Positions 368-34,532 of a DNA stretch of 37,343 nucleotides are shown one piece after another. Each line of letters begins with the position of its first letter. The first letter of the stretch is position 1. Position numbers and translations under genes: made by a program. Below the pieces are notes generated by a model. That model did not search any database, was not told where the DNA came from, and saw nothing but the letters and a program-made list of their open reading frames with translations. Source of the stretch: Pseudomonas phage LUZ100; sequence record OP329100.1. One strand, given 5' to 3'.

Positions 368-396
368 TTGACATCCTATCCACCAGCGCATAAGAT
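368..396 (+). promoter_or_regulatory. Sigma70-type early promoter P1 (TTGACA-17 bp-TAAGAT)
   Basis: Perfect -35 TTGACA (368-373), 17-bp spacer, -10 TAAGAT (391-396); spacer carries B element copy 1. Confidence 0.6.
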
Positions 397-568
397 GCGC
401 AGCCATGGACGGTCATCTAGCGGCCTTCCAGCCCAGCCCCAAGCGCTGAACAGTCAAGGATAAAGACGTTAAAACCCGCGTAGCACTAGGGGCGCAGCAC
501 TGACCACTGGTACAGCCTCAAACGGTCAAGGCCAGACGATACAGACTGCAGGGCGATCCAAAAGCCGC

Positions 569-597
569 TTGACAAACTATCCACCAGCGCATAAGAT
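569..597 (+). promoter_or_regulatory. Sigma70-type early promoter P2 (TTGACA-17 bp-TAAGAT), tandem with P1
   Basis: TTGACA 569-574, 17-bp spacer, TAAGAT 592-597; identical 29-mer ctatccaccagcgcataagatgcgcagcc at 376-404 and 577-605. Confidence 0.6.
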
Positions 598-833
598 GCG
601 CAGCCAAGAGGGAAGCGAAAGCCAACCTCACCGACCTTCGGGTCACTGCTCTTTAACAATCTGGATGATGGTGCCCGTAGGTAACACAAACGGCAAGGAT
701 TGCCGGTAATCCCCAAGGATGGTGGATGCCTCAAGGCACATTGACTGGGTCATTCCCAGGATCAGTGCGCCTTGAAGTATCCACCCGCGAGATGGATGCG
801 TTGACGTATTGCCCAACAACTGGAGAACTACAG

Positions 834-989
834 ATGGCAAACGGTTTTGTGTTGTATGAAGGCCCGTCCGTTCTGGATGGCGCCCCTATTGTCGCAATCG
901 CCACTATGTCCACCAAGAACGCCAAGACTGGCGCGATGGTGCAAACGTGGATTCTGCGGGCTAATATGGCTCCCCTGGCTGCTTGCTGA
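834..989 (+). CDS. Small early hypothetical protein (51 aa), internal ATG of ORF 726-989
   Basis: ATG 834 preceded by GGAGAA RBS; downstream of P2; no recognisable domain. Confidence 0.3.
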   Translation: MANGFVLYEGPSVLDGAPIVAIATMSTKNAKTGAMVQTWILRANMAPLAAC

Positions 990-1116
990 CCGCTCTCGTG
1001 ACTGCCCGGTGGTTCCACCGCCAGGGCATTCGCACTGGACTCACCCGAGTTCGCAAAGGCCACTGGGTTGTGACGCCCAGGGCTTGAATTACCCCCACTA
1101 CTAGGAGAAATGACCT

Positions 1117-1518
1117 ATGAACGAAGCACTGAAAAAACTGGCCCTGGTCGCTCACGCCACCCTGGTCGCTAAGACTGTCGAGAAGGCTGTGACCTGCGAT
1201 GCCCTGGATGACCTGCAGATCGGCCAGACCTTCACCTTCGATGCTGTGAACCGTACCAAGACAGGTCGCCTCATGGTCGAGGGCATCGTGGAGAAGGTCT
1301 GTCACATGGACTTGGCCAAACTGATGCAGCACGGCCCGTTCACCATCGTGGCCACCTACAAGGGTGCGCTGACCGATGTTGTCTGCCAGGACGTGAGTGG
1401 TGAGCACTTCATGCTGCCGAGCGGTGTGTTCGTCCTGTTGAAGCGCTTCGAGAACGGCGACCTGCCGCCCGAGCTGCCCTTCGGTCTCGACTTTGAGGAT
1501 CTGCGAAAAGCTGCCTGA
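1117..1518 (+). CDS. Early hypothetical protein (133 aa)
   Basis: Strong RBS aggagaaatgacctATG; position of T7 class I (host-takeover) genes; no recognisable motif. Confidence 0.6.
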   Translation: MNEALKKLALVAHATLVAKTVEKAVTCDALDDLQIGQTFTFDAVNRTKTGRLMVEGIVEKVCHMDLAKLMQHGPFTIVATYKGALTDVVCQDVSGEHFMLPSGVFVLLKRFENGDLPPELPFGLDFEDLRKAA

Positions 1519-1540
1519 TTGATCATAAGTAGTGGCCTTC

Positions 1541-1568
1541 TAATGCCATTTCGATATTAGAGGGCCAC
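1541..1568 (+). promoter_or_regulatory. Intergenic extended hairpin, candidate RNase III-type processing site
   Basis: AGTGGCC...GGCCACT outer stem with inner TCTAAT/ATTAGA pairing; lies between two early genes like T7 R-sites. Confidence 0.3.
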
Positions 1569-1650
1569 TTGAAAGAAAGGCTTCTAGCCCCCAACCATTT
1601 GCGCCCGGATTCATACACAAAAGGGGCAATGCACCAAAGGAGCACACCGG

Positions 1651-1935
1651 ATGAATCAAACCATTGACAAACTGATCGAGTCCTCGAACGGACGCTTCCT
1701 GACCATCAAGTTCCTCAAGGACAACGGCGAAGTCCGCACCTTGAATGGACGTGTAGGTGTCCGCTGGGGCAACGTCCCGAGCAGCTACCGGCGGGACTCA
1801 AAGCACCGCAAGTTCTACCTGATCTACGTCCCTCACAAAGGTTACCGCCGAGTCAACGCTGACGCCGTGCTGGAGGTATCGCTGGACGGTGTCACGGTGA
1901 AGAACAACACGGTTCCTCCAGAGATCGCCGCATGA
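1651..1935 (+). CDS. Early hypothetical basic protein (94 aa)
   Basis: RBS aaaggagcacaccggATG; K/R-rich; no recognisable domain. Confidence 0.6.
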   Translation: MNQTIDKLIESSNGRFLTIKFLKDNGEVRTLNGRVGVRWGNVPSSYRRDSKHRKFYLIYVPHKGYRRVNADAVLEVSLDGVTVKNNTVPPEIAA

Positions 1936-2320
1936 TCTCCCTGGAGGATGCGCTGGACATCGGGGTGATCGTTCTCCTGATAGGCGTGACCGTGTTTTTC
2001 GTGAGCATCACTTAGGAGTAACTCGGTCTGGAATCGTCTGTCGTCGAGGCGGTACAGGGCGAAAGGAACTCGCAGGGCAAGACGTACTAGAGAGGCAGAC
2101 GCCCGAAGTCTGCTAAGTGCATAAGTTACAAGGGTTATACGAGAAGATGTACATCAGTTTTTGCTCTCCCCAAATCTTCGGAAAGCGGTGCTTTTTTGAG
2201 TTCGATAGTAATTCACGTCCGCAACAGATGCTAGACTGGATTGTCGAACCGAATGATGTTTTACTGTGGGTGTGGAGGTTCCACATCGTCATATCCAAAG
2301 AAACTAGGAGGTAACAAACC

Positions 2321-2650
2321 ATGGCTCTGACAGCTCTCGCAGTGATCGAGGAAGTACTCAAGCGGTTCCGCGACTTCGATCAGGAGATGCAGACTGCCCA
2401 GACATTCATCGCGGTCGCTATGCAGCCCGGCATCACCATGAAGGAGCTATCGGAGAAGGTTGGCATTTCTCAAGCGTCCTGCAGCCGCAACGTCTCGGCC
2501 CTGTCCCGAGTTCACCGGCTGAACAAGCCAGGGATGGATCTGGTTGTGGCTGCAGAAGACCCGATGGAACGCCGCCGTAAGGTAGTCAAGCTGACCCCGA
2601 AAGGGCAGCGCCTTGCCGAGACACTGACCCAACTGATCGAGGAGAAGTAA
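2321..2650 (+). CDS. MarR-family winged-helix transcriptional regulator (109 aa)
   Basis: RBS ctaggaggtaacaaaccATG; motif ELSEKVGISQASCSRNVSAL...ERRRKVVKLTPKGQRL typical of the MarR HTH and wing; lies just upstream of the integrase. Confidence 0.6.
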   Translation: MALTALAVIEEVLKRFRDFDQEMQTAQTFIAVAMQPGITMKELSEKVGISQASCSRNVSALSRVHRLNKPGMDLVVAAEDPMERRRKVVKLTPKGQRLAETLTQLIEEK

Positions 2651-2657
2651 CAGAGGT

Positions 2658-2743
2658 TGGTGCTCGGAGCGGGACTCGAACCCGCAAGACCGTAGGTCGG
2701 AGCATTTTAAGTGCTCTGTGTCTACCAATTTCACCATCCGAGC
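2658..2743 (-). tRNA. tRNA-Leu (anticodon TAA), 86 nt with long variable arm; likely attP core
   Basis: Minus-strand read GCTCGGATGGTGAAATTGGTAGACACAGAGCACTTAAAATGCTCCGACCTACGGTCTTGCGGGTTCGAGTCCCGCTCCGAGCACCA folds with a 7-bp acceptor stem, 3-bp D stem, anticodon loop CTTAAAA, 5-bp T stem GCGGG/CCCGC and CCA. Confidence 0.8.
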
Positions 2744-2755
2744 GAGGAGATACCC

Positions 2756-3829
2756 ATGCCGGTAAAGCCAAGAGGTCGTGGCTTTGAGGCCACAGTTAAC
2801 CACCAAGGGGGGAAGTACCGGAGGCAATTCACAACCCAGGTCGAAGCCGAAGCCTGGGAGAAGGCGACCAAAGCCGCCCTGATGAGGGGCGAGATGGTAT
2901 CAGAAACAACCAACTCTGCCAACGGAAATCCTAGCACTCTCAAGGAGTTGGCTGACTTAACTTACAAGCGATTCTGGCAAGGGCGCCCTGGAGGAGAAAC
3001 GGCCCTACGAAACGCAAAGCAGTGCATCAATATCCTCGGTGAGGGGATGTCCCCAGGCTCAGTAAACGAACAGCGCATCGACGACATGGTGTTCGCCCTA
3101 GAGCAGCTCGGGCTGTTCGACAGTACGATCAACCGCAAGCTCTCCGCTTTGTCCAAGATGCTGACCTTCGCCTATGAGCGGGGCTACATCAGCCGCAAGC
3201 CGAAGATCGAACGCAAGAAAGAACCCCAGAACCGCATCCGCTACTTCGACGAAGCAGAGGAGCAGCTCATCCTGGGAGCCTTCACCCACTTCGGGATGCT
3301 CGACATGGTCGACTTCTGCATCGTTGCAATCGACACCGGTATGCGGGTCGGTGAGATTCTGCGGATCGAAGACCGGGACGTAGCCAATGGGCTGGTGTCC
3401 GTGTGGCGCACGAAGAACGGTAAGGCAAGATCCATCCCGATGACGAAGCGCGTGGCTGAGGTATTGGAACGCCGCTTCAAGGAGGAGCGTCGCCGGATGA
3501 ACACCATCGGCAACGTGAAAGCCTTTGAGGGGTGGAACCACAGCAAGATCCGCACGCTGTGGGATCGAGTGCGCCGTCACCTGAAACTCATGACCGACCC
3601 GCAGTTCGTACCCCATGCAATGCGGCACACCTTCTGCTCCCGGCTGGTTCAGCGTGGAGTGGACATCGTGACGGTCTCGAAGCTGGCCGGTCACAGCTCC
3701 ATCGTAGTCACCATGCGGTACGCTCACCTCGCTCCCGATAGTCTGGCCCATGCCATTCGGAAGCTGGAAGAACCCGCAAAAGATGTAAATCCCCAAGCTC
3801 GACACACGACACAAGTTGTGTCGCGGTAG
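2756..3829 (+). CDS. int: Tyrosine-type site-specific integrase
   Basis: RBS gaggagataccc-ATG at 2756; C-terminal catalytic motifs HAMRHTFCSRLVQRGVDIVTVSKLAGHSSIVVTMRYAHL (H-x-x-R...H...Y); the ORF-track extension from 2711 would overlap the tRNA. Confidence 0.85.
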   Translation: MPVKPRGRGFEATVNHQGGKYRRQFTTQVEAEAWEKATKAALMRGEMVSETTNSANGNPSTLKELADLTYKRFWQGRPGGETALRNAKQCINILGEGMSPGSVNEQRIDDMVFALEQLGLFDSTINRKLSALSKMLTFAYERGYISRKPKIERKKEPQNRIRYFDEAEEQLILGAFTHFGMLDMVDFCIVAIDTGMRVGEILRIEDRDVANGLVSVWRTKNGKARSIPMTKRVAEVLERRFKEERRRMNTIGNVKAFEGWNHSKIRTLWDRVRRHLKLMTDPQFVPHAMRHTFCSRLVQRGVDIVTVSKLAGHSSIVVTMRYAHLAPDSLAHAIRKLEEPAKDVNPQARHTTQVVSR

Positions 3830-3960
3830 TGTCGAGAGCCGTGTTTGATGCGGTAGTGGAAAGGTTGAACATCAATAAAATCAACCACTTACGCTACGCA
3901 TAGTCTCCTGCAACAGACTTAAAAGGTCTTGCATCCGACTATCCACTGGCACATTGAATA

Positions 3961-3988
3961 ACCCGGCATCGTCCGGGTTTTCTTTTCC
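3961..3988 (+). terminator. Rho-independent terminator after int
   Basis: acccgg-catcgt-ccgggt stem-loop followed by tttctttt. Confidence 0.6.
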
Positions 3989-4019
3989 CATCAACTATCC
4001 ACTGTCGCAACCTTTGCAG

Positions 4020-4052
4020 ACCGCTCGACACAGGACACGAGCGGTTTGTGTC
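4020..4052 (+). terminator. Second hairpin (8-bp stem accgctcg/cgagcggt) with a weak T-tract, terminator or processing site
   Basis: Perfect 8-bp inverted repeat with 10-nt loop, then ttgtgtcg. Confidence 0.35.
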
Positions 4053-4080
4053 GTCACGGCTCTCTGACGCCCTGCTTGGC

Positions 4081-4103
4081 AATTACCACACAGTCTTGGA
4101 GCA
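4081..4103 (+). promoter_or_regulatory. Phage RNAP promoter, family A copy 1 (AATTACCACACAGTCTT|GGAGCA), upstream of the RNAP gene
   Basis: Matches the 7-copy family A consensus; resembles K11/T7/T3 promoters (AATTA at -17..-13, CACA at -9..-6, purine-rich GGA start). Confidence 0.6.
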
Positions 4104-4160
4104 CCGAGAGGTGACCTCCGAGGCCGGTTCCTTAAAGCCAAACTCAGAGAGATCCAATAG

Positions 4161-6686
4161 ATGACTTCCATCATCACCAACCAACTGATTCAGGAAATTG
4201 AGAACAACCAAGAGTGGCAAGAGAAGTTCGACCGTCAGGTAGAACTTGAGGAGAAGATGCGAGGTATGGGCGTCGACCGTCACTGGTCGGAGGTAGCCAA
4301 GGCCAGGGAGCGTGGTCAGGAAACCAGCGTCCGCTCCGTCCGCCGACTGATGAACTCGTCAGTCGCCAAGATCGCAGAAGGCATCCGCCAGTTCATCGAG
4401 AGCTGCGAGTCCGGCAAGGCTGGCCGCAAGCACAGCGCATACCCACTGCTCAAGCAGATCGAACCCGAGTCCGCAGCCCTGATCACCGCACGGGTGGTAC
4501 TGGATGGCGTGGCCAAGGGTGACCTGCTGGTTCCCCTGGCTCGCCGCGTTGCGTCCCTGATCGAGGACGAGCTGGCCTTCCGTGAGTTCGCCAAGGCGGA
4601 CAAGAAGACCTACGACTGGCTGGTCAAGCGCGAGAAGCGAGTCAACGGCAGCAGCTACCGCCGCCAGCGGCTGACCATGCTGCACAACATGGAGGCCCGC
4701 AACATCGCATGGCAGGAGTGGACTGCCCGCGAGTCCCTGCTGGTCGGCTCCAAGCTGATCGAGATCATGACCGAGACCACCGGCCTGATCCAGAAAGTCA
4801 CCCGCACCGTGGATGTGAAGCGCCAGGAGGTAGCCATCGAGGCCACCCCTGAGACCATCGCCTGGATCAACGAGGAGAACAACCGCTGCGAAGCTCTCTC
4901 CCCGGTGTACCTGCCCACCATCATCCCGCCTCGCCCCTGGACTTCACCGTTCGAGGGCGGCTACTGGACTCCGCGTGTCCGCCGACTGGCCCTGGTCAAG
5001 ACCCACTCGAAGGGGTACTTGGAGGAGCTGGCCGAACACGACATGCCGGAAGTCTACGATGCGATCAACGCCATGCAGCACACCGCCTGGGCCATCAATG
5101 GCCGGGTGCTGGAGGTGGTTCGCAACCTGTGGAACAACGGTGCCACTCTGGGTGGTATCCCTGCGGCTGACGATCTGCCGCTCCCGCCGAAGCCCCTGTT
5201 CCTTGAGCAGGAGCTGCCCCGCGAGGAGTGGTCGGAGGATCAGGTGCGCCAGTTCAAGGAGTGGAAGCGCGAGGCAACCGACACCTATGCGTCCAACGCG
5301 AAGCTGAAGTCCCTGCGTCTGCAGTTCGCCAAGGTGTTGATGATTGCCGAGATGTTCGAGCATGAGGAGGAAATCTACTTCCCGCACCAGTTCGACTTCC
5401 GTGGCCGGGCCTACGCTGTGCCGATGTTCCTGAACCCCCAAGGCAGCGACATCGCCAAGGGTCTGCTGGAGTTCGCCAATGCGGTAGCGATCAACGACGA
5501 GGAAGGTGCCAACTGGCTGGCCATCCACGGTGCCAACAGCTACGGCTACGACAAGGTCTCCCTGGCCGAGCGTGTGCGCTGGGTGCAGGAGAACGAGGGC
5601 GAGATCCTGGCCTGTGCTGCTGACCCGTACAGCCACAGCATGTGGGCCAAGGCCGACAAACCGTTCCAGTTCCTGGCGTTCTGCATCGAGTGGGCAGAGT
5701 TCAAGCGCGAGGGCTACGGCTACCTGTCGACCCTGCCCATCGCAATGGACGGTAGCTGCAACGGGCTGCAGAACTTCTCGGCCATGCTGCGTGATGCCAT
5801 CGGCGGCGAGGCCGTGAACCTCGTGCCCCAGGAGAAACCGGCGGACATCTACCAGAAGGTGGCCGACCGTGTGGTGCTGCGTGTCGAGGCTGATGCCATC
5901 GGCCAGGACGAGGAGCTGGCGAAGCTGGCCCAGGGCTGGCTCAAGCACGGCATCAACCGCAAGGTGTGCAAGCGCCCGGTGATGACCCTGGCCTACGGCG
6001 CCAAGGAGTTCGGCTTCAAGACCCAGGTGTTCGAGGACACCGTCATGCCGTACAAGCTGAAGGCTGGCAAGGAGTTCCCCTGGGAAGGCTCCGGCTGGGC
6101 TGCCGCTGAGTACATGGGCAAGCTGATCTGGGAGTGTGTCGGTGAGGTGGTGGTCGCTGCTCGTCAGGCTATGGACTGGCTGCAGAAGGCTGCGCGTCTG
6201 GCCGCGAAGGAAGGACTGCCGGTGCGCTGGAACACCCCGGACAATCTGGTCGTGCTCCAGGCGTACCCGAAGATGCTGACCGAGCGCATCGACCTGACCT
6301 TCGGGGGCAGCCGTCACCTGCTCACCGTGGCAGTCAGCCCGACCACCGAGCTGGATCGCAACAAGCAAGCCAACGGGATCAGCCCGAACTGGGTTCACTC
6401 GATGGACGCCAGCCACATGCGGGCCACTGTCCGCCGCTGCTGGAACGAGGGGATGCGCAGCTTCTCCCTGATCCACGACAGCTACGGCACCCACGCCGGG
6501 AACGCCTGGGCCTTGGCCAAGTTCCTGCGGGAGGAGTTCGTCATCATGTACGAGGAGGATGTGCTGGAAGACTTCAAGCGAGAACTGGAGCGGCAGCTCC
6601 CCGAAGGATCGGTGCTCGATCCGCTACCCCCGAAGGGCAACCTGAACTTGGCTCTGGTGCTGGAGTCCGCGTTCTTTTTTGCCTGA
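4161..6686 (+). CDS. T7-like single-subunit DNA-dependent RNA polymerase (841 aa)
   Basis: Collinear with T7 gene 1 product: PRPWTSPFEGGYWTPRVRRLALVKTHSK, DMPEVYDAINAMQHTAW, FPHQFDFRGRAYA, AMDGSCNGLQNFSAML, HDSYGTH, C-terminus PKGNLNLALVLESAFFFA. Confidence 0.95.
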   Translation: MTSIITNQLIQEIENNQEWQEKFDRQVELEEKMRGMGVDRHWSEVAKARERGQETSVRSVRRLMNSSVAKIAEGIRQFIESCESGKAGRKHSAYPLLKQIEPESAALITARVVLDGVAKGDLLVPLARRVASLIEDELAFREFAKADKKTYDWLVKREKRVNGSSYRRQRLTMLHNMEARNIAWQEWTARESLLVGSKLIEIMTETTGLIQKVTRTVDVKRQEVAIEATPETIAWINEENNRCEALSPVYLPTIIPPRPWTSPFEGGYWTPRVRRLALVKTHSKGYLEELAEHDMPEVYDAINAMQHTAWAINGRVLEVVRNLWNNGATLGGIPAADDLPLPPKPLFLEQELPREEWSEDQVRQFKEWKREATDTYASNAKLKSLRLQFAKVLMIAEMFEHEEEIYFPHQFDFRGRAYAVPMFLNPQGSDIAKGLLEFANAVAINDEEGANWLAIHGANSYGYDKVSLAERVRWVQENEGEILACAADPYSHSMWAKADKPFQFLAFCIEWAEFKREGYGYLSTLPIAMDGSCNGLQNFSAMLRDAIGGEAVNLVPQEKPADIYQKVADRVVLRVEADAIGQDEELAKLAQGWLKHGINRKVCKRPVMTLAYGAKEFGFKTQVFEDTVMPYKLKAGKEFPWEGSGWAAAEYMGKLIWECVGEVVVAARQAMDWLQKAARLAAKEGLPVRWNTPDNLVVLQAYPKMLTERIDLTFGGSRHLLTVAVSPTTELDRNKQANGISPNWVHSMDASHMRATVRRCWNEGMRSFSLIHDSYGTHAGNAWALAKFLREEFVIMYEEDVLEDFKRELERQLPEGSVLDPLPPKGNLNLALVLESAFFFA

Positions 6687-6736
6687 TACAATCCACTAGC
6701 GCATAGGTTGCGCATGTGTAACGTCGAGCCAGGCGG

Positions 6737-6759
6737 GATTACCACACAGGTATGGAAGA
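6737..6759 (+). promoter_or_regulatory. Phage RNAP promoter, family A copy 2 (GATTACCACACAGGTAT|GGAAGA)
   Basis: Family A consensus; tandem pair just after the RNAP gene, analogous to T7 phi1.1A/phi1.1B. Confidence 0.6.
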
Positions 6760-6783
6760 CCGCGCTGGCTCCACCCCCAAGGC

Positions 6784-6806
6784 GATTACCACACAGGTAT
6801 GGAAGA
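6784..6806 (+). promoter_or_regulatory. Phage RNAP promoter, family A copy 3, 47 bp from copy 2
   Basis: Identical 26-mer attaccacacaggtatggaagaccgc to copy 2. Confidence 0.6.
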
Positions 6807-6838
6807 CCGCCCACCCACCAGATCACGAGGAGAACTTC

Positions 6839-6964
6839 ATGAGCGCACTCGACAGAGCAATCACCTACTGGAGCGAAGACATGCCGATCCCCTTGGATCT
6901 GGCCATGGAGCTGGCCAGCGAGGGCTACGACGTGGAAGCCCTTGAGGACTTCTATCGCCAGTAA
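6839..6964 (+). CDS. Very acidic small protein (41 aa; MSALDRAITYWSEDMPIPLDLAMELASEGYDVEALEDFYRQ)
   Basis: RBS gaggagaacttcATG; first gene after the RNAP and tandem promoters (T7 gene 1.1/1.2 position); 11 D/E against 2 K/R. Confidence 0.5.
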   Translation: MSALDRAITYWSEDMPIPLDLAMELASEGYDVEALEDFYRQ

Positions 6965-7010
6965 CTATCCACAAACGCATTTAACCCACGACAACTGTGA
7001 GGACAACTGA

Positions 7011-8622: not shown

Positions 8623-8624
8623 CC

Positions 8625-8647
8625 AATTACCACACAGGTATGGAAGA
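8625..8647 (+). promoter_or_regulatory. Phage RNAP promoter, family A copy 4 (AATTACCACACAGGTAT|GGAAGA), phi3.8 analogue
   Basis: Family A consensus, immediately after the amidase gene. Confidence 0.6.
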
Positions 8648-8650
8648 CCG

Positions 8651-8688
8651 CCCCCGGTATGCCCAGCGCTGCCGGGGGTTTCTGTTTC
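8651..8688 (+). terminator. GC-rich hairpin plus U-tract at +10 of promoter A4 (attenuator or terminator)
   Basis: cccccgg-N14-ccggggg followed by tttctgtttc. Confidence 0.4.
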
Positions 8689-8718
8689 AAGACCCACGAC
8701 AACTGTGAGGAGAACCCC

Positions 8719-8961
8719 ATGACCCACACCCAAATCCGTGCTCTGTCCCCGCAATGTGAACTGATCCTGAACCACCTGATGGCTGGCCACACGATCACCC
8801 AGCGCTCGGCCCTGATGGACTTCGGCGTGATGGCTCTGCCGCGCCGCATCGCTGACCTCAAGGAGCGTGGCTACGACATCGTGTCCGTGATGGAGCACAA
8901 CAAGCTCACCGGCCAGCGCTATGCCCGCTACTCCCTGAAAGCCCAGAAGCGCCGCGCATAA
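8719..8961 (+). CDS. Small winged-helix DNA-binding protein (HTH_39-like), 80 aa
   Basis: RBS gaggagaacccc-ATG; pattern ILNHLMAGHTITQRSALMDFGVMALPRRIADLKERGYDI resembles the phage HTH_39 family. Confidence 0.5.
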   Translation: MTHTQIRALSPQCELILNHLMAGHTITQRSALMDFGVMALPRRIADLKERGYDIVSVMEHNKLTGQRYARYSLKAQKRRA

Positions 8962-8971
8962 GGAGGCCCGC

Positions 8972-9172
8972 ATGATCCAGCTCAACAAGATCCTCAAGTC
9001 CTTCCAGAAGACCATCGACCAGCTCGAACAACTGACCGCCGCCAACAACGTGGAGGTCAGCCGCAACACCGAGCAGATCGACCGACTGCAGGAGAAGAAC
9101 CTGATCCTGATTGCAGAAGCCCAGGCTGCCAAGGAGACCGCCGAGAACCTGAAAGCCCTGATCGGCCACTGA
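8972..9172 (+). CDS. Small coiled-coil protein (66 aa)
   Basis: RBS taaggaggcccgcATG; heptad-like charged/hydrophobic pattern; followed by a terminator. Confidence 0.55.
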   Translation: MIQLNKILKSFQKTIDQLEQLTAANNVEVSRNTEQIDRLQEKNLILIAEAQAAKETAENLKALIGH

Positions 9173-9248: not shown

Positions 9249-9259
9249 GAGGACAGAAC

Positions 9260-11568: not shown

Positions 11569-11590
11569 CTATCCACTAGCGCATAGGTAC
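11567..11590 (+). promoter_or_regulatory. B element copy 7 (AACTATCCACTAGCGCATAGGTAC), 18 bp upstream of the DNAP start
   Basis: One of 9 copies of the ACTATCCACYAGCGCATAGG family; function unresolved (see findings). Confidence 0.4.
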
Positions 11591-11607: not shown

Positions 11608-13404
11608 ATGAAGACCCTTGAGTTCGACTGTGAAACAAACGGGCTGCTACACCAGCTCGACCGCGTCCATTCCCTCGTGATCAAGGACGCAACCACCGGG
11701 GAGCGTGGCTCCTTCGCTGACCAGCCGGGCTACTCGCCCATCAAAGAGGGGCTGGCTTGGCTGATGGAGGCTGACCTTGCGGTTGGTCATAATGTGGTCA
11801 AGTTCGACGTACCTGCGCTGCAGCAGGTCTACCCCTGGTTCGACATCCCGCTCGAACGGCTGCGTGACACTCTGGTACTGACCCGCCTGATCTGGCCGGA
11901 GATCGGTGACCGGGACACCGGCCTGATCCGCAAGGGGAAACTGCCAGGGAAGCTGCGAGGCTCCCACTCCTTGGAAGCCTGGGGCTATCGCCTCGGGGTC
12001 TACAAGGGTGAGTTCGGTAAGACCTCGGACTGGCAGGTCTGGACGCCTGAGATGCAGACGTACTGCGAGCAGGACGTTGAGGTCACCGATGCGCTGTGGA
12101 AGAAGATCCAGTCCAAGGAAGTGGCCGAGCGCGCCGTCGAGCTGGAGCACTGGTTCGCCTTCATCATCGGTCTGCAAGAGCGCCACGGGTTCGCCTTCAA
12201 CACCCAGGCAGCCGCTGCTCTGTACACCACCCTGGTGGCCGAGCGGGAGAAGCTGGACTCGGAACTCAAAGGCGCCTTCCGGCCCTGGTACGTCAACGCC
12301 GGGGTCGTCATGCCCAAGCGCCCGAACCGTACCCAGGGCATCGAGGCCGGGGTTCCGTACTGCAAGGTCACCCTGCAGGAGTTCAACCCAGCCAGCCGAC
12401 TGCAGATCGCTGACCGCCTGACCAAGCTGCACGGCTGGAAACCCCAGGAGTTCACCGATAGTGGCCAGCCCAAGGCCGACGAGACGGTGCTCTCCAAGCT
12501 GCCGTACCCAGCGGCCAAGCTCCTGGCTCGCCGGTTCCTGATCGAGAAGCGCATCGGGCAACTGGCCGAGGGGAACCAGGCTTGGCTCAAGCTGGAGCGC
12601 AAGGGGCGCATCCATGGCTCGGTGAACACCATCGGTGCCGTGACCGGGCGCTGTACCCACAGCCACCCCAACGTCGCCCAGGTGCCGTCAGTCCGCGCCC
12701 CATTCGGCAAGGAGTGTCGGGCACTGTTCGGTGCTGACCCTGGCTACGTCCAGATCGGTGCCGATGCCTCGGGCCTTGAGCTGCGCTGCTTGGCCCACTA
12801 CATGGCGCGGTATGACGGGGGAGCCTACGCCAAGGTTCTGCTCGAAGGTGACATCCACACGGAGAACCAGAAGGCAGCCGGTCTGCCCACTCGGGATAAC
12901 GCGAAGACGTTCATCTACGCCTACCTCTACGGGGCTGGCGACGAGAAGATCGGGCAGATCGTTGGCAAGGGTGCGAAGGAAGGGAAGAAGCTCAAGGAGA
13001 ACTTCCTGAAACGCACCCCCGCATTGAAGCGGCTACGCGAAGACGTTGCGTCAGCCGTGAAAAAGCGGGGCTACCTCGTCGGGATCGACGGGCGACACCT
13101 GCACATCCGATCCGACCACGCCGCCCTCAACACCCTCCTGCAATCAGCCGGTGCCCTGTTGGTTAAACAAGCCACGGTCAACTTGTATCGGGAGCTATCC
13201 ACCCGTGGATACGTCTTCGGCAAGGACTGGGCGATGTTGGCCCACGTTCACGACGAGTACCAGCTCCAGGCCAGGAAGGAGATCGCAGACGAAGTTGCCC
13301 AGGTAGCCGTGTGGGCCTTCCAGCAAGCGGGCCGCGACTTCAACTGGCGGTGCCCCCTGGATGGTGAGGCCAAGACCGGCACGAACTGGGCGGAGTGCCA
13401 CTGA
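11608..13404 (+). CDS. Family A DNA polymerase with 3'-5' exonuclease (T7 gp5-like, compact 598 aa)
   Basis: Exo I LEFDCETNGL; motif A GADASGLELRCLAHY; motif B KTFIYAYLYGAG; motif C HVHDEY. Confidence 0.9.
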   Translation: MKTLEFDCETNGLLHQLDRVHSLVIKDATTGERGSFADQPGYSPIKEGLAWLMEADLAVGHNVVKFDVPALQQVYPWFDIPLERLRDTLVLTRLIWPEIGDRDTGLIRKGKLPGKLRGSHSLEAWGYRLGVYKGEFGKTSDWQVWTPEMQTYCEQDVEVTDALWKKIQSKEVAERAVELEHWFAFIIGLQERHGFAFNTQAAAALYTTLVAEREKLDSELKGAFRPWYVNAGVVMPKRPNRTQGIEAGVPYCKVTLQEFNPASRLQIADRLTKLHGWKPQEFTDSGQPKADETVLSKLPYPAAKLLARRFLIEKRIGQLAEGNQAWLKLERKGRIHGSVNTIGAVTGRCTHSHPNVAQVPSVRAPFGKECRALFGADPGYVQIGADASGLELRCLAHYMARYDGGAYAKVLLEGDIHTENQKAAGLPTRDNAKTFIYAYLYGAGDEKIGQIVGKGAKEGKKLKENFLKRTPALKRLREDVASAVKKRGYLVGIDGRHLHIRSDHAALNTLLQSAGALLVKQATVNLYRELSTRGYVFGKDWAMLAHVHDEYQLQARKEIADEVAQVAVWAFQQAGRDFNWRCPLDGEAKTGTNWAECH

Positions 13405-13945: not shown

Positions 13946-14676
13946 GAGCGCAGTACGTTGACCACATGGGCAGCGACCTGAGCGTGGTGAACGCTGCCCG
14001 CGTGTCCTTCGACAAGGTGTCCCAATGGGAACGCCCGGTGCTGCGGGTCGAGACCTACATCCACCCGCACAACGGCGACGAGATAGAGCACAAGGTACTG
14101 GGCGAGCCGCGCCTCTCCCAGGCCGACTCCAGGCTGATCCGCTACCTCGCCAAGCACGACCACTGGACACCCTTCGCCCACACCAACATCACCCTGCGCA
14201 TGAAAGCTCCGGTGCCGATCCGCACGCAATGCTTCAAGCACAAGCAGGGTCTGGTGGAGAACGAGGAGTCTCGCCGGTACATCAGCTCGACCCCTGAGCT
14301 GTTCGTCCCGTCCGTGTTCCGCAGCAAGCCCGAAGGCTCGGCCAAGCAAGGCTCTGCCGGTGAGCACCCGCGCAGCCATGAGTGGCGCCGGGAGTACCGC
14401 ATGGCTGGCGAGTACGCGATCCGCCTGTACGAGGACATGATCCGTGACGGCGTCTGCCCGGAACAGGCCCGCTTCATCCTGCCGCAAGGCTGCGAGGTGA
14501 ACTGGATCTGGACTGGCAACCTGTACGCCTTCGCCAACTTCTACCTGAAACGCACCGACCCGCACGCCCAGCACGAGATTCAAGTGCTGGCCCAGGAGGT
14601 CGGCTCAATCATCGAACCGCTGTTCCCAGTCTCCTGGGCGGCTTTGACACGTCTGGAGGAATCCACCAGTGGATGA
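13942..14676 (+). CDS. ThyX-like (flavin-dependent thymidylate synthase fold) protein with a divergent active-site motif
   Basis: HWTPFAHTNITL...FKHKQGLVENEESRRY aligns to the ThyX RHRx7SxRY signature (RHR replaced by KHK); ARFILPQGCEVNWIWTGNLYAFANFYLKR matches the ThyX C-terminal AR..LP...NLR.W..F..LR block. Confidence 0.5.
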   Translation: MRAQYVDHMGSDLSVVNAARVSFDKVSQWERPVLRVETYIHPHNGDEIEHKVLGEPRLSQADSRLIRYLAKHDHWTPFAHTNITLRMKAPVPIRTQCFKHKQGLVENEESRRYISSTPELFVPSVFRSKPEGSAKQGSAGEHPRSHEWRREYRMAGEYAIRLYEDMIRDGVCPEQARFILPQGCEVNWIWTGNLYAFANFYLKRTDPHAQHEIQVLAQEVGSIIEPLFPVSWAALTRLEESTSG

Positions 14677-20638: not shown

Positions 20639-20830
20639 CAAGATCGTTCTCCGATCTCTCCTGTTGGTTGGTACTTCGGGGCTGGCTTCATGTCGGCCTC
20701 GCTTTTTCCCAGGATTCCATCGCCCCCAAGCCTCTGGCCGGGTTCCCCGTCACCCGCGTATCTAAGGCCACGCTCAAATCGTGGGGCCGCTAGGCAGCTT
20801 GCTCCGTCTGCCGAATCACGGAGCTTTCAC

Positions 20831-20906
20831 TGGCATGTAGCTCAGATGGTAGAGCACCCGGCTGTTAACCGGGCGGTCGCAGGTTCGAGTCCTGCCGTGC
20901 CAGCCA
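20831..20906 (+). tRNA. tRNA-Asn (anticodon GTT), 76 nt
   Basis: TGGCATGTAGCTCAGATGGTAGAGCACCCGGCTGTTAACCGGGCGGTCGCAGGTTCGAGTCCTGCCGTGCCAGCCA: cloverleaf with 7-bp acceptor stem (one G-U), anticodon loop CTGTTAA, T-loop TTCGAGT, CCA end. Confidence 0.85.
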
Positions 20907-21191
20907 AATCCCATAGAGAAGGAGGTGATCCTGTATCTCCGGGTGCAGCTACGGAAACTGCACAAGCCCTAGCACGTCGGGAGACGTTACTGGGCAACCC
21001 CTACCTCGAACGACGAGTGCCTCAAGTCGCACTGGCAGCAAAGCCGGTGACTTAGCACCCAAAGCATTTCATGCACGAGCCTCGGCCCAACTGGCCCACC
21101 TGCGGGTGGAGCCGGAAGGACAACCTTGTGCGCAGCGCGTGGATGGCTGCTGGGAGCAACCCACTCTCATCAATCGTTCACGAGGTAACAA

Positions 21192-22146: not shown

Positions 22147-22168
22147 CAACTATCCACCATCGCATAGG
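22147..22168 (+). promoter_or_regulatory. B element copy 8 (AACTATCCACCATCGCATAGGA), between capsid stop and gp11 RBS
   Basis: Member of the 9-copy B family. Confidence 0.4.
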
Positions 22169-26240: not shown

Positions 26241-26250
26241 GAGGTAACCA

Positions 26251-27963: not shown

Positions 27964-27971
27964 GGAATTGA

Positions 27972-30900: not shown

Positions 30901-31604
30901 GAGAGGACGCCACCGATCCCGAGAAGTCCGACGCTGCGATGCTCAAGTTCCTGGGCGAGAAGCTGCGCACCCTGGTGCCCAACACCATGCAGAAGATCGC
31001 CAAGACCAACGACCCGACCATCGACGACCCGACTACGTTCTGGCAGATGGTGGAGTCGAAGGTGCTCTTTGGGGGAACCCTGGGAGCCTACGAGCGCAGT
31101 GCCCCGAAGTCCTACGACTTCCTGGGGAACGTGCGGCAGATGGGCGACGAGGGGGCAATGTGGAACATCTTCTCCCTGTCCACTCCCGAGGAGCGGGCCA
31201 AGGGCATGAACGAGCAGCAGCTCGATGTGCTCCGCAAGCTCGACTACATCAGCAAGCAGACCGGGACGACCTTCGCTGCGCCCAACAAGCACCGGCTGAT
31301 GGGCAACACCGATCTTCGCAAGACGTTGACGGCGGACGGCCAGGAGTCCCTGTATGACCGCTGGCAGCGCTACTACAAGGAGCAGCAGCCCGAGGTCGGC
31401 CTGTCGCAGATCCTCAACGCCGGTCTCCCGGTGGGCACCCAGTCCATCAGCGGGCCGGTGGTGCAGCAGGTGAACCGCTACATCAACTCCCTCCGTGATG
31501 CCGCTTTCTACCGGCTCATGGCCGAGGAAGCTGGCGTCCAGCAAGGAGTCATCCAGAACCTGCACCGCAAAGCTGAGGTGAAAGCGGGCTTCTGGGATCA
31601 GTAA
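27972..31604 (+). CDS. Internal virion (core/ejection) protein D, gp16-like (1210 aa)
   Basis: Largest structural ORF just before the tail fiber, as in T7; RBS gagga. Confidence 0.65.
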   Translation: MAVYEIGGARYELPDDLQGDQLNETLMYLSQAEAPQEAAPAPTDYQYGAVAEDIDPDTLASNQDWLNASRVLYQMNEGQPFQGSDQELAEWGLDMMGWFNYNLPVMAVDAAKIGNAEQYEKDAFLYLMDSYDNLNVSWEGAGRFFKGVLTDPTTYVGLGTLGVGLAGKEGAKQATKAGVRELLKAGLKTGTVAGVEGAMYGAVDNTIRQSIEVSAGRKEEIDGTSVLGSAALGAGVGLAGGTVLSAVSDSLANKWRNFRAGPEETLPVPVQAAPEAQPKAAVDSAAPTTPDAAPTPSQPAQLEAPPTDLVRVAPGTDAAIPAREGELIFNRTLEQLNTPELDNQIPFVPRNMDEVTQFAESLAEDLRDLHYTQVEDIVDQLRTTKMTQAEWGSFNRSTQIAVDQLRVELARVIKETQGTTDPEKLYLLGKQQEKLERLLSPVAAMDEAFSSLTGSMLRQRQEGLTALRGLSPEELAKQGMTKEAADAEYARRVDAVMESAEFKQKTQEYDSAISAALAKGDVGEAARLTVIKQEELAIDAESAAGTNPGFIRKANELIISNVFSMTTLMVNAVPSMAKVLYRPTLNAALSNPFEKATRREMMATYSAMRSATGGAWRAAKAAFRYEQAILTRESGRLLEGELAIKGLKGGVIRMFPRLLNASDEFMSRITYEGFIAGKVANDAFEEGERQGLKGKALNQFVKTKVREAIEASYANPTAQENLNVVLNKGRTLGYSGQKLINYVQREVARDPEALRHGHDSEAIDYVRDVLYKRAFSGEGFASSTAKRYEDWVNEHPIVRLMGQLFFRTPVRVFEEGMRMTPGVQVLAPGFIRDLRGLNGRRAQMRAQGEAMMSLAATSAVLTLYAQGRITGDGAYSDWRQQRARGDSDLPEPYTIRFDDGSTWSYRNFDPLATPLKIMINGLERYENLVRRERQGEFVAKTEWDRAKAAVSVGTGAIAQAIRDANLMAGVDAMLTLGEDATDPEKSDAAMLKFLGEKLRTLVPNTMQKIAKTNDPTIDDPTTFWQMVESKVLFGGTLGAYERSAPKSYDFLGNVRQMGDEGAMWNIFSLSTPEERAKGMNEQQLDVLRKLDYISKQTGTTFAAPNKHRLMGNTDLRKTLTADGQESLYDRWQRYYKEQQPEVGLSQILNAGLPVGTQSISGPVVQQVNRYINSLRDAAFYRLMAEEAGVQQGVIQNLHRKAEVKAGFWDQ

Positions 31605-31625
31605 CAACCATTCGTTCAACGCACA

Positions 31626-31657
31626 GGGGCGGCCTTCGGGTCGCCCTTTTTCTTTGT
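31626..31657 (+). terminator. Rho-independent terminator with UUCG tetraloop between gp16 and the tail fiber gene
   Basis: ggggcggcc-TTCG-ggtcgccc then tttttctttg. Confidence 0.6.
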
Positions 31658-31670
31658 CTGGAGGAAAAGC

Positions 31671-33623
31671 ATGGCTCTTGCACGAGTCACCTATACCCAG
31701 AGCGTCAACGGTAACCGCAACTTCTCGGTGCCTTTCCCGTACCTGTCCAAGGATCACGTCAAGGTCACCGTGAACGGCGCAGCCGTGACGTTCTCCTGGC
31801 TGTCGGCCTCGTCCATCCAGTTGACCACGGCACCGGCCATCGGCGCCAAGGTCGAGGTTCGCCGGGTAACCGAGCGCAACTCTCTGCTGGTGGACTTCGC
31901 GGACGGCTCCACGCTCACCGAAAGCCAGCTCGATCTGGCCAGCAAGCAGAACTTCTATCTGTCCCAGGAAGCGGATGACCTGGCTGTCGAATCCAATGGT
32001 CTGGCGAACAATGCAGTGAGCATCGCCAATGGTGCTACCACTACGGCCAATGAGGCGAAGACCCTCGCCAACAGCGCGGTGAGTACCGCAAACACAGCGA
32101 ACTCCACTGCCAACCAAGCCAAGACCTCTGCTGATAGCGCTGTGGTAACTGCCGGTAACGCCGCCAACACCGCTTCATCTGCAGTGGTGACTGCCAACGG
32201 AGCGGTTCAAACCGCCCAACAGGCTGACTCTAAGGCTGGCTCCGCCGTGACAACCGCTTCCCAAGCGAATAGCCGTGCAGCCAGCGCGGAATCCAAAGCT
32301 GATTCGGCAGTAGCCACCGCCAATGGGGCTAACACGAAGGCAGACGCCGCCACGAACACAGCGAACACCGCACTGAGTACCGCGAACACCGCACTGAGCA
32401 ATTCGGAAGCCGCTGTGTCTCTAGCTAACGCGGCGTCGATCAGCTCCGACGAAGCTCAGGCATCCTCAAGCGCTGCCCAGGCTGCTGCCCAGGCTGCTGC
32501 CCAGGACGCCCAAACAGCGGTGAACACTGCTCTAGGGTTAGAGTCAACAGTCAATCAGGTTCTGCAGGATGTCCAAGCGATTGCCGGTGGTGACCTCTCG
32601 GACTTCGCAAAGAACTCCGAGAACTTGTCCGGCCTAACTAATAAGGCAGCGGCAAGAAGTAACTTGGGCCTTGGTCAGGTAGACAACACCCGTGACTTGG
32701 ATAAGCCGATCTCGAACGCTACACAACAAGCGCTCGACACAAAAGCTGAATCCGTTCATGTACACACCAAGTCTCAGATCACTGACTTCACTGTAAGTTG
32801 GGACGAGGTCACAGGTAAACCGTCAACTTTCACCCCGAGCAGTCACAGTCATGCCGCTACGGACTTGCCGGGTTCCGTGCGGGGTCTGGTAGCGTCCTAC
32901 GGGAGCGGTTGGGGAGATCCAAATAGCTCAGTAGACCACATCCTACTTTCCAATCACGCGAATACCCCAAATTCGTCGTTCTACTGGCACATCTACACGA
33001 GCTTCTACTCGTCGATTAGCTCGACAGCGAACCGCTCGCAGTTGGCCATCCAATATAACGGCGGCAATCAAGTATACGCCCGCTCGTGTTTCAACTCGAC
33101 GTGGACGCCTTGGGTGCGTTTGGATGTTGGCGATTGGGATACGCTGCTGAATAAGCCGAGCAGTTTTACACCCTCGGCTCACTCTCACGTATGGGCGGAT
33201 ATTACCAACCCTCCGGCACAAGCGACTCGGTGGCCTACTTGGACAGAAGTAACCAGTAAGCCCACTACCTTCCCCCCGAGTAGCCACACGCACGGCGTAA
33301 ATGACATTGCCACAGCATTTACCGCTGCGGGTTTGCAGAGTCTCGGAACTGACGGTTACCAGCAGTTCCCTGGTGGGTTAATCCTGCAGTGGGGTAGAAC
33401 TGCCAGCATAGCTGGTGATTCGAGCACCACCATTACCTTTCCCATCACTTTCCCTTCAGTTGTCGCAGTGGCCCATGCAACGCCACTTGTAACCGGCAAC
33501 GCGGTCACCAGCGACAACTGGGGCATGGTAGAGCCGATTAGCACCTCCCAACTACGTGTGTACCGTGGGTTAAAAGGTGTCAGCCAGAAAAACCTTGTTT
33601 ATTGGACGGCTATTGGATACTGA
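31671..33623 (+). CDS. Tail fiber protein: gp17-like N-terminal adaptor domain fused to repeat-rich and low-GC C-terminal domains
   Basis: N-terminus VTYTQSVNGNRNFSVPFPYL...VEVRRVTERNSLLVDFADGS parallels T7 gp17 (LTYQLDGSNRDFNIPFEYL...ELRRVTSTTDRLVDFTDGS); then Ala/Ser/Thr/Asn-rich repeats; C-terminal part has different base composition. Confidence 0.9.
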   Translation: MALARVTYTQSVNGNRNFSVPFPYLSKDHVKVTVNGAAVTFSWLSASSIQLTTAPAIGAKVEVRRVTERNSLLVDFADGSTLTESQLDLASKQNFYLSQEADDLAVESNGLANNAVSIANGATTTANEAKTLANSAVSTANTANSTANQAKTSADSAVVTAGNAANTASSAVVTANGAVQTAQQADSKAGSAVTTASQANSRAASAESKADSAVATANGANTKADAATNTANTALSTANTALSNSEAAVSLANAASISSDEAQASSSAAQAAAQAAAQDAQTAVNTALGLESTVNQVLQDVQAIAGGDLSDFAKNSENLSGLTNKAAARSNLGLGQVDNTRDLDKPISNATQQALDTKAESVHVHTKSQITDFTVSWDEVTGKPSTFTPSSHSHAATDLPGSVRGLVASYGSGWGDPNSSVDHILLSNHANTPNSSFYWHIYTSFYSSISSTANRSQLAIQYNGGNQVYARSCFNSTWTPWVRLDVGDWDTLLNKPSSFTPSAHSHVWADITNPPAQATRWPTWTEVTSKPTTFPPSSHTHGVNDIATAFTAAGLQSLGTDGYQQFPGGLILQWGRTASIAGDSSTTITFPITFPSVVAVAHATPLVTGNAVTSDNWGMVEPISTSQLRVYRGLKGVSQKNLVYWTAIGY

Positions 33624-33632
33624 GGAGCATTT

Positions 33633-34043
33633 ATGTACTTCTACTCCCCAACAACAAAAGGGTTTTACCCAGCGGAGTTTGCCTCGAACTATAAAGAGGC
33701 TGATGCGTGGCCTAGCGATTGTGTTGAGGTCACGCTTGAAGAGCACCGTGCTCTTATTGAAGGCCAAAACGGTGAGACTGAGATCGCTTTCGATGCGACG
33801 CTAGGTAAGCCTGTTTTGAGGAAGCGGGTTCCGCCTCCCTTGGAGGAGCGGCGGGCCTTCATCGAACGGCAGCGTCGTAACGCCTACGCAGACCCTCAGA
33901 CGGGAAGCGACCGTCTTTTCGCTGAGGCAAACCGGATGCAGCTCACAGGCGAGACCGGATGGGAGGAGCTTCTGGAGAAAGCCAAGGCCCGCTACACGGA
34001 GATTAAGGAGACGCTCCCTTGGCCTTCGGAGGCTTCTGAATGA
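33633..34043 (+). CDS. Tail fiber assembly protein / chaperone (Tfa-like), 136 aa
   Basis: N-terminal MYFYSPTTKGFYPAEF...DCVEVTLEEHRALIEGQ matches the tail fiber assembly protein start pattern (Y-F-Y/S...GFY...V.V..eeh..L); low GC. Confidence 0.6.
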   Translation: MYFYSPTTKGFYPAEFASNYKEADAWPSDCVEVTLEEHRALIEGQNGETEIAFDATLGKPVLRKRVPPPLEERRAFIERQRRNAYADPQTGSDRLFAEANRMQLTGETGWEELLEKAKARYTEIKETLPWPSEASE

Positions 34044-34267
34044 CCGTCCGCCACGCTGCTGAGCAAGTCGCTCTCGTCACCACTCCCGTACCGGTGGGTG
34101 TCTCGGGCATGACTATGTTCGGGATCACCCTGCAGGACTGGGTGTTCATCGGCACCGCGATGCTGCTGGTGTTCCAGATCATCGTGTTCCTGCCCAAGGT
34201 ACGGGATGCCTTCAAATCCCTGTTCGGTAAGGAGAAACCCAATGACCGCACCGAAAGAGCTTCTTGA
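34040..34267 (+). CDS. Holin, T7 gp17.5-like (class II)
   Basis: PVPVGVSGMTMFGITLQDWVFIGTAMLLVFQI parallels T7 holin PIVGTGVADVSARLFFGLSLNEWFYVAAIAYTVVQI; canonical position before small terminase. Confidence 0.8.
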   Translation: MTVRHAAEQVALVTTPVPVGVSGMTMFGITLQDWVFIGTAMLLVFQIIVFLPKVRDAFKSLFGKEKPNDRTERAS

Positions 34268-34475
34268 GGCTCTCCATGCGGCGGTCGGTGAGAAGCTCCT
34301 GGCTCGCATCCAGTCTGGAGAGGCGACTGCCTCGGATTTCGCCCAGGCCATCAAGTTCTTGAAGGACAACGGCATCGAGGCAATCCCGACTGCCGGTAAC
34401 TCCCTGGAGCGACTGACCAATTCGTTGACCAGCCAGCTCCCGTTCACCGATCCCAACGATCCCGCATACCACTAA
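34242..34475 (+). CDS. Terminase small subunit (gp18-like), 77 aa
   Basis: RBS ggtaaggagaaacccaATG; position between holin and large terminase; helical small protein. Confidence 0.55.
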   Translation: MTAPKELLEALHAAVGEKLLARIQSGEATASDFAQAIKFLKDNGIEAIPTAGNSLERLTNSLTSQLPFTDPNDPAYH

Positions 34476-34510
34476 CCAAACCGCCTAGAAGGCCCGTAGA
34501 GCGTCTCCAG

Positions 34511-34532
34511 CAATCCACCAGTGCATAGGTAC
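34511..34532 (+). promoter_or_regulatory. B element copy 9 (CAATCCACCAGTGCATAGGTAC) upstream of the HNH and terminase genes
   Basis: Member of the B family. Confidence 0.4.

Follow-up and report, generated by a model that had tools for sequence, protein, structure and literature searches.

Introduction

T7-like phages were long regarded as strictly lytic, and relatives that carry an integrase are now recognised as common, among them abundant ocean phages and candidates for phage therapy. Classical MarR-type regulators (MarR at marO, MexR, MepR, SlyA, OhrR) are homodimeric winged-helix proteins that bind a pseudo-palindrome of 16–22 bp over the −35/−10 region, and the OL/OR sites of phage lambda are palindromic repressor sites over the early lytic promoters. 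The subject of the present study is a repeated pseudo-palindrome, denoted family B, in the genome of Pseudomonas phage LUZ100 (record OP329100.1), for which we propose the phage's own MarR-type regulator, gp10, as the probable binding protein. The window, i.e. the whole stretch of DNA analysed, is the complete genome of 37,343 bp with direct terminal repeats of 244 bp (1–244 = 37100–37343), and its + strand carries all LUZ100 genes.

Transcription start and end sites of LUZ100 were mapped by ONT-cappable-seq (Putzeys et al. 2023, PMC10134795), giving 11 published starts (405, 606, 2273, 4100, 6756, 6801, 8644, 8786, 16410, 20635 and 36799), and the genome length, repeat length and specificity-loop sequence of the RNA polymerase (RNAP) given in that paper are identical to those of the window. 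The same paper, citing Boeckman et al. 2022 (Virology 568:86), puts forward the hypothesis that MarR binding near the RNAP promoter (phi1) blocks the polymerase cascade in lysogeny; it gives no LUZ100 site sequence and considers the sites possibly defective (PMC10134795). The host promoters P1 and P2, the phage promoters and the hypothesis of MarR control are thus already published. What is new here is a concrete candidate operator for the already hypothesised regulator, read from sequence, and the observation that the best-conserved B copy lies directly past the RNAP stop codon across very distant phages. Our literature search found no publication defining the B motif, Boeckman et al. 2022 being outside the coverage of that search.

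As summarised by Putzeys et al. 2023, the hypothesised MarR lysogeny switch of temperate T7-like phages uses the same protein family at the same place, beside the integrase and upstream of the RNAP gene, but here a concrete palindrome is described, which has at least 12 copies and lies in P1 and P2 and past the RNAP stop, not only around phi1. Family B is like classical MarR operators in the length of the pseudo-palindrome, in its overlap with core promoters (P1 and P2 in LUZ100, that of the MarR gene in L159 and L168) and in the predicted fold of gp10; in contrast, gp10 is short (109 amino acids, no sixth helix), and B sites are found genome-wide, one of them intragenic, where classical operators number one or two at a single divergent promoter. 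As in lambda, palindromic sites lie over early promoters, but LUZ100 is without divergent repressor and cro genes, its regulator is co-transcribed with the integrase on the strand of all other genes, its sites are distributed over the genome, and the target cascade runs via a phage single-subunit RNAP. The promoters of T7, T3 and SP6 resemble a second LUZ100 repeat, family A (AT-rich −17 to −13, specificity block −12 to −8, start at GGA), whereas family B is palindromic, carries no starts and is independent of the specificity loop.

Family B is a pseudo-palindrome with copies throughout the LUZ100 genome

In LUZ100, family B is a pseudo-palindrome of 18–22 bp with the form (A)CTATCCAC-NN-GYGCATAG(GT), and its general form is (A/C)CTAT(C/G)CAC-NN-GTG(C/G)ATAG(GT). 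A pattern search found 6 matches in LUZ100 at ≤3 mismatches, compared with 0 in 100 shuffles. When sites were scored out of 16 against the palindrome CTATSCAC-NN-GTGSATAG, 9 sites reached ≥13/16 where 0.3 were expected (shuffle maximum 3 in 200 shuffles). All nine copies listed in a preliminary description of this DNA are present to within 1–2 nt. Six copies are strong (376, 577, 6689, 11569, 22150 and 34511), and in three (3939, 3995 and 6965) the left half alone is preserved; three further copies had been overlooked (13195–13212, 14659–14676 and 35000–35017), together with a disrupted one at 777–799. It had been claimed that all copies are on the + strand and intergenic. The strand assignment means little because of the dyad symmetry, and the intergenic position is true for most copies and not for that at 13195. 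The B copies, given without strand, and the features next to them are as follows.

368–396, + strand: host sigma70 promoter P1 (TTGACA, 17 nt, TAAGAT; published start 405)
376–393: B palindrome in P1, CTATCCAC-CA-GCGCATAA, 14/16, filling the spacer and the first 3 nt of the −10
569–597, + strand: host sigma70 promoter P2 (TTGACA, 17 nt, TAAGAT; published start 606)
577–594: B palindrome in P2, 14/16
777–799: disrupted B copy, GTATCCAC-N8-TGGATGC
3939–3956: B copy with perfect left and weak right half, 13/16, directly upstream of terminator T4
3960–3979, + strand: intrinsic terminator T4 (published 3′ end 3985), with a B copy on each side
3995–4012: B copy with perfect left and degenerate right half, 11/16, between T4 and phage promoter phi1
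4161–6686, + strand: T7-type RNAP gene
6689–6706: B copy, 14/16, beginning 3 nt past the RNAP stop codon and ahead of promoters phi2/phi3
6965–6982: B copy with weak right half, 12/16, overlapping the gp14 stop codon, upstream of the gene for single-stranded DNA-binding protein
11569–11586: B copy, 15/16, between primase/helicase and DNA polymerase
13195–13212: near-perfect B copy, CTATCCAC-CC-GTGGATAC, 15/16, within the DNA polymerase open reading frame (ORF)
14659–14676: B copy, ATCCAC-CA-GTGGAT, 12/16, at the gp25 stop/gp26 start junction, between the Shine–Dalgarno sequence and the GTG start of gp26
22150–22167: B copy, 14/16, past the capsid gene, its right end forming the base of terminator T16
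34511–34528: B copy, 15/16, between terminase-S and gp52, within a long hairpin (about 34487–34571)
35000–35017: B copy, GTATCCAC-TG-ATGGATAG, 14/16, at the gp52 stop/terminase-L start

Across 59 distinct copies collected from LUZ100 and related phages, information content is high in both half-sites, the central two bases are nearly free, and flank positions −1 and 20 (A/T) mirror each other although they were not used in site selection. The post-RNAP copy of close relatives, CTATCCACTAGTGCATAG, matches on both strands, and perfect palindromes are found at orthologous places (L031 GTATCCACCAGTGGATAC, L034 GTATCCACTCATGGATAC, L011 CTATCCATAAGTGGATAG); those of L031 and L034 come from prophage relatives and are the counterparts of the disrupted LUZ100 copy at 777–799. 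Enumeration of perfect palindromes only was too strict for use in relatives. The position past the RNAP stop codon, 6689 in LUZ100, is the B location conserved most widely. Syntenic counterparts were also found for the copy at 6965 (L009–L012) and for that at 11569 (L010–L012 and L083).

The intragenic copy encodes L-S-T-R-G-Y with CTA and GGA codons. This CTA leucine codon is used in all six relatives examined (to ∼55% protein identity), only one of which lacks GGA, and this suggests selection on the DNA sequence itself. Family B is very probably the site for some dimeric DNA-binding protein.

An element at gene junctions might also act in RNA, and a processing signal was among the options of the preliminary description. 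In favour of B as a stabilising hairpin or a site processed by RNase III/E, its distribution resembles that of T7 RNase III sites, and two copies do lie in strong structures, at 34511 in the long hairpin (−54 kcal/mol, z −5.6) and at 22150 in a terminator stem. But both structures form with flanking sequence, the LUZ100 palindrome itself pairs at only 6/8 positions, and the other six of the eight folded B regions show no significant RNA structure (z −1.4 to +0.7). Moreover, the P1 copy is upstream of the start of its own promoter, and the published 3′ ends at or near B copies are only those of T4 and T16. With so little RNA structure and only these ends, a processing role is therefore not supported, and we consider an RNA-level function extremely improbable.

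Family B could instead serve mainly as a recombination linker at module boundaries where related phages swap cassettes, and pairs of B copies do flank variable cassettes, namely gp52 (34511/35000), gp14 (6689/6965) and gp23–25 (13195/14659). A linker would need neither dyad symmetry nor a free central dinucleotide, however, and would leave unexplained both the placement in promoter spacers and the conservation across phages of 31–67% GC that share almost no other DNA. This explanation is thus very unlikely, and exchange at B may be a by-product of a conserved motif.

Some additional features were seen around these copies. The irregular hairpin at 34487–34571 has outer stem arms that appear retained with sequence changes in L028, L031 and L034, as judged without counting the pairing; a terminator replaces it in L032 and L037. 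No published 3′ end of LUZ100 falls within this hairpin. The neighbouring gp52 (34585–35010) encodes an HNH/restriction endonuclease and is an insertion that near-identical relatives lack; in these, terminase-L begins at the ATG that gp52 uses in LUZ100; the N-terminus of LUZ100 terminase-L differs. In addition, a second dyad overlaps the right half of B at 386–400, 587–601 and 6699–6713. At P1 and P2 it reads GCGCAT-AAG-ATGCGC, with its centre on the −10, and past the RNAP gene it reads GCGCA-TAGGT-TGCGC, the L008 version being TCGCA-TAGGT-TGCGA with both arms changed.

Family B fills the spacers of the early host promoters

The two left-end copies are identical 30-mers within TTGACA-17-TAAGAT, and the earlier assignment of genuine sigma70 promoters agrees with the published starts at 405 and 606 (P1 and P2), each 9 nt downstream of TAAGAT. 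In both promoters the palindrome spans the entire −35/−10 spacer and the first −10 bases. When nine B-containing early promoters from six genomes were aligned, only the −35, the two half-sites and the −10 were invariant and the flanks diverged. In six further loci from relatives, B likewise occupies the spacer of each early promoter of the TTGAC type that was found.

The remaining copies are not sigma70 promoters: either the −35 is absent, as had been stated before, or the spacing is 19 bp, or the −7 T is missing. The −35-like TTGCCT encodes part of the RNAP C-terminus (..FFFA*) and is spaced by 19 bp, and −10 hexamers at the non-early copies are poor, so that sigma70 was rejected there. Readings of B as a sigma54, extracytoplasmic-function sigma, MotA-like or LuxR-box site were likewise rejected since spacing or key bases do not fit.

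Family A, and not family B, is the promoter of the phage RNAP

Family A is a + strand repeat, ATTACCACACAG-NNNN-GGAR, with seven copies (4082, 6738, 6785, 8626, 16394, 20617 and 36782). The predicted starts of these copies coincide with seven of the eight published phage-specific starts (4100, 6756, 6801, 8644, 16410, 20635 and 36799), the eighth, at 8786 (phi5), being without a family A copy. Family A is the true phage-RNAP promoter. The copies closest to the RNAP gene are the following.

4082–4101, + strand: phi1, family A copy with start 4100, a possible regulated target
6738–6804, + strand: phi2 and phi3, tandem family A copies with starts 6756 and 6801, downstream of the post-RNAP B copy

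In relatives with a 74–79% identical RNAP, the equivalent of family A keeps AATTA....CAGTATTGGAG and differs in the −12 to −8 block, which is CCACA in LUZ100, GGTGA in L009 (almost the SP6 promoter), GGGGA in L010 and GTGAA in L012. The RNAP loop residues aligned to T7 R746/N748/R756/Q758 are R-D-R-L, R-K-E-Q, R-K-Q-K and R-K-N-R in the same four genomes, i.e. the promoter block and the specificity loop change in step. Family B, in contrast, retains TATCCAC at syntenic positions in relatives with a changed RNAP loop. In L012, five tandem 12-bp units (AAAGACAACCTT) at 418–477 also separate the family A promoters from the RNAP gene.

These data bear on the proposal, made in the preliminary description, that B is a second promoter class, used by the phage RNAP or by host polymerase with a phage factor. 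Its copies do have a promoter-like placement at gene boundaries, the right half ends in CATAGG, which resembles T7 −4 to +2, and CCAC is common to families A and B in LUZ100. But none of the 11 published starts lies at the copies at 3939, 3995, 6689, 6965, 11569, 22150 or 34511, nor at any other copy outside P1 and P2, and the starts of these two promoters, 405 and 606, fit the sigma70 −10 and lie 11–12 nt downstream of the T7-type start expected at CATA|AG. The ATAGG that had been likened to the −3 to +2 box of T7 is in fact part of the right half-site and mirrors the left flank (A)CCTAT. Two B copies lead directly into intrinsic terminators, and an acceptable −35/−10 pair is found at no copy outside P1 and P2. 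Because B has no published starts beyond P1 and P2 and stays constant, as a palindrome, where the RNAP loop and true promoter have changed, a second promoter class is rejected within the sensitivity of the published data; it is largely refuted, and we give it hardly any probability.

B-type sites follow the MarR-type regulator gp10

Operators for several phage regulators had been suggested as a further option, and the MarR-type regulator is the one favoured by the evidence of symmetry, predicted gp10 fold and gene association. The two genes concerned are listed here.

2321–2650, + strand: gp10, MarR-type winged-helix regulator of 109 amino acids and candidate B binder, recognition helix ..GISQASCSRNVSALS..
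2711–3829, + strand: tyrosine integrase gene

Over its 109 residues gp10 matches the LUZ100 ‘transcriptional regulator’ with 100% identity, and in Pfam HTH_24 is above the cut-off, with MarR_2 at 23.8 bits (cut-off 27). Its AlphaFold model (predicted local distance difference test, pLDDT, 89.5) has MarR topology with five helices and no sixth, and in a Foldseek search against PDB all of the top 50 matches were MarR-family dimers, PcaV, MarR, MexR, MepR and SlyA among them. We conclude that the modelled gp10 has a MarR fold.

A scan of a genome collection with the LUZ100 RNAP gave three loci only, with unclear host. A MarR-like gene adjoins the integrase in every relative with an available early region. 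Wherever these phages have TATCCAC as the site, they share an unchanged recognition helix, ISQ(A/S)SCSRN(V/I), despite the drift of RNAP specificity. A wider survey covered 79 viral loci with gp10 homologues of 41–97% identity. In its 39 non-redundant distant loci (≤63% identity, GC 31–67%), 37 B-type palindromes were found where 3.4 were expected from shuffles (∼11-fold), whereas ten T7-like control loci (161 kb), for which no MarR homologue could be detected, contained 1, which is the level of chance.

A B-type site, or at least its left half, lies 0–17 nt past the RNAP stop in 48 of the 50 MarR-carrying loci that include the RNAP 3′ end, e.g. ..TTTGCCTAA-AC-CTATGCACTAATGGATAG, or TATACAC-TC-GTGAATTAG in AT-rich lineages, where it seems, by eye, to overlap the SP6-like promoter-like sequence AATTAGATACACATATAG. 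In Pelagibacter phage HTVC019P, which is cultured and integration-proficient, the post-RNAP site is CTATGCACACCTGCATAG (15/16), and more B-type copies are found upstream of the MarR gene and between the integrase and RNAP genes.

Moreover, where the helix has SRH or SRQ instead of SRN, a different element occupies the corresponding places. L189, L013 and L014, which have an altered helix, carry a TTGCCAA-type element, and Limnohabitans phage YIMV22061 (L042), with a differing MarR-like helix, carries the palindrome TCTCGC-N4-GAGA, one copy of which is right past the RNAP stop.

25966, 26413, 27427, 30321 and 32849 of L042, reverse strand: copies of TCTCGC-N4-GAGA, past the early genes, just before the RNAP gene and past the RNAP stop

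The DnaA box has the 9-mer consensus TTATNCACA, and family B might consist of two host DnaA boxes placed head to head, or be a site for some other host factor, by which the phage reads or titrates a host protein. The half-site (C/G)TAT(C/G)CAC(Y) matches the box at 7/9 with the free position shared, and the halves in L083 reach 8/9 (TTATCCACT and CTATCCACA). Box positions 1 and 9 are usually wrong, however (C/G for T and Y for A), and a universally conserved host protein would not explain why lineages with an altered MarR helix have a different element. Furthermore, B follows the MarR gene and not the host, with hosts spanning Pseudomonas to SAR11; it stands at chance level in the T7-like loci where no MarR gene was detected (1 palindrome in 161 kb), and the 112 exact palindrome matches from the whole viral collection, about ten of them in LUZ100-like phages, are of the order of chance and serve only to estimate the background. 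A host-factor site is accordingly an explanation to which we attach very little weight.

Two other phage proteins were considered as binders. The KilA-N protein gp20, one of the earlier suggestions, was rejected as unlikely since its gene is missing from close relatives that retain B. The other is the following.

8659–8961, + strand: gp18, HTH_39 winged helix, made from phage promoter phi4

If B were bound by another phage protein such as gp18, the host-dependent early promoters would be shut off once the phage polymerase is active. This protein is a winged-helix protein and is present at 67–100% identity in all close B-carrying relatives (L001–L012) covering the region. Against gp18, L013 and L014 keep ATCCA-type elements at syntenic sites and no HTH_39 gene was found in the region they cover, and in HTVC019P, which has B-type sites, no gene separates lysozyme from primase, the location of gp18 in LUZ100. 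The enrichment of B, moreover, was measured on loci selected for the MarR gene. We regard a role for gp18 or a similar protein as unlikely. On the present sequence comparisons, gp10 itself is probably the protein for which family B is the operator.

The attachment site and the B copies upstream of the RNAP gene

The region upstream of the RNAP gene contains two B copies around T4. The preliminary description had placed that at 3995 10–40 nt upstream of the RNAP gene, but the actual distance to the start codon is ∼150 nt. Next to these copies lies the inferred attachment site.

About 3917–3925, + strand: inferred attP core GACTTAAAA, 13 nt upstream of the B copy at 3939, from the junctions in L008 (attL) and L031 (attR)

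The site of the integrated relative is the anticodon loop of a host tRNA-Leu(UAA) gene (junctions at about 1440–1480 of L008 and about 18270–18330 of L031). With the attP core at this position, the RNAP gene of a prophage would therefore be separated from promoter P3 of the MarR gene, and it would be exposed to transcription reading through from the promoter of the host tRNA gene, the two B copies and, between them, T4 lying on the way. As a separate observation, neither junction of the integrated relative restores the host tRNA-Leu(UAA), and a full tRNA-Leu(UAA)-like gene of the phage (minus strand, 2658–2743) could substitute.

Use of B as integrase arm-type sites was rejected: its copies are genome-wide, and GACACAAG repeats around attP are better candidates. 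CGACACAAGTTGTGTCG and related GACACA(A/G)G repeats (3806–3822, 4026–4053 and 89–117) lie on both sides of the attP core and again within the terminal repeat, and may be arm-type sites.

Two observations elsewhere in the genome are recorded for completeness. CTAGTGG(G) motifs recur at about 169–180, 215–225 and 305–315, within and just past the terminal repeat. A tRNA-Asn(GTT) gene lies at 20831–20906, between promoter phi7 and the capsid gene, and the mechanical ORF at 20690–21055 is therefore probably no gene.

Discussion

From the symmetry, positions and conservation of B and from its association and co-variation with the MarR gene, we infer that gp10 probably binds at B with a repressive effect, and that the promoter-distant sites may have a role as well. 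A gp10 dimer on the site in P1 or P2 would exclude host sigma70 polymerase from the early promoters, because B covers the whole spacer and the first −10 bases. Other sites would be bound around T4, near the attachment site upstream of the RNAP gene, past the RNAP stop and at later gene junctions. The likely role of gp10 and B would be to hold down the polymerase cascade in the prophage, and they may also time the switch from early to middle transcription.

Several observations do not fit easily with gp10 as the repressor acting at B. In LUZ100 the left half of B is always the better one and position 14 is mostly C rather than G, a consistent bias that a purely symmetric operator would not predict; in the B copies of relative L011 the bias is the opposite. 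Most copies are promoter-distant, with 11569, 13195, 22150, 34511 and 35000 far from any mapped promoter. The promoter of the LUZ100 MarR gene, P3, has only a degenerate B-like site (9/16), whereas relatives L159 and L168 have good B sites at this promoter. Several AT-rich lineages with the same SQASCSRNV helix score <13/16, their post-RNAP site being TATACAC-NN-GTGAATTAG. Furthermore, gp10 transcripts are made in lytic infection, at a time when P1 and P2 are active, so that repression, if any, must be partial or timed. Finally, the MarR-carrying phages form one clade, and another clade-specific protein could therefore be the binder.

The prophage relatives have good palindromes where LUZ100 has the disrupted copy at 777–799, the degenerate site at P3 and the weak right halves at 3939 and 3995. 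Speculatively, these weak sites of LUZ100 fit its failure to form stable lysogens.

The candidate palindrome of 18–22 bp, whose copies are mapped in the strong host promoters P1 and P2 and next to the RNAP gene, makes the proposal that MarR control silences a self-amplifying phage RNAP directly testable, and B-related sites span from Pseudomonas phages to Pelagibacter phage HTVC019P. Separation of family A from the look-alike family B matters for use of the LUZ100 polymerase–promoter pair as a synthetic-biology part, and B together with gp10 would offer a possible orthogonal repressor–operator pair. More broadly, and only tentatively, B may be the cis-element of the lysis/lysogeny switch in all integrase-carrying T7-like phages, including those of Pseudomonas, the SAR11 pelagiphages and some cyanophages. 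It would then form a network of MarR operators spread over the genome, the best conserved of which lies just past the RNAP stop and abuts the first phage-polymerase promoter. If this is true, one small regulator would gate both the entry of the host polymerase at P1 and P2 and the self-amplifying cascade of the phage polymerase.

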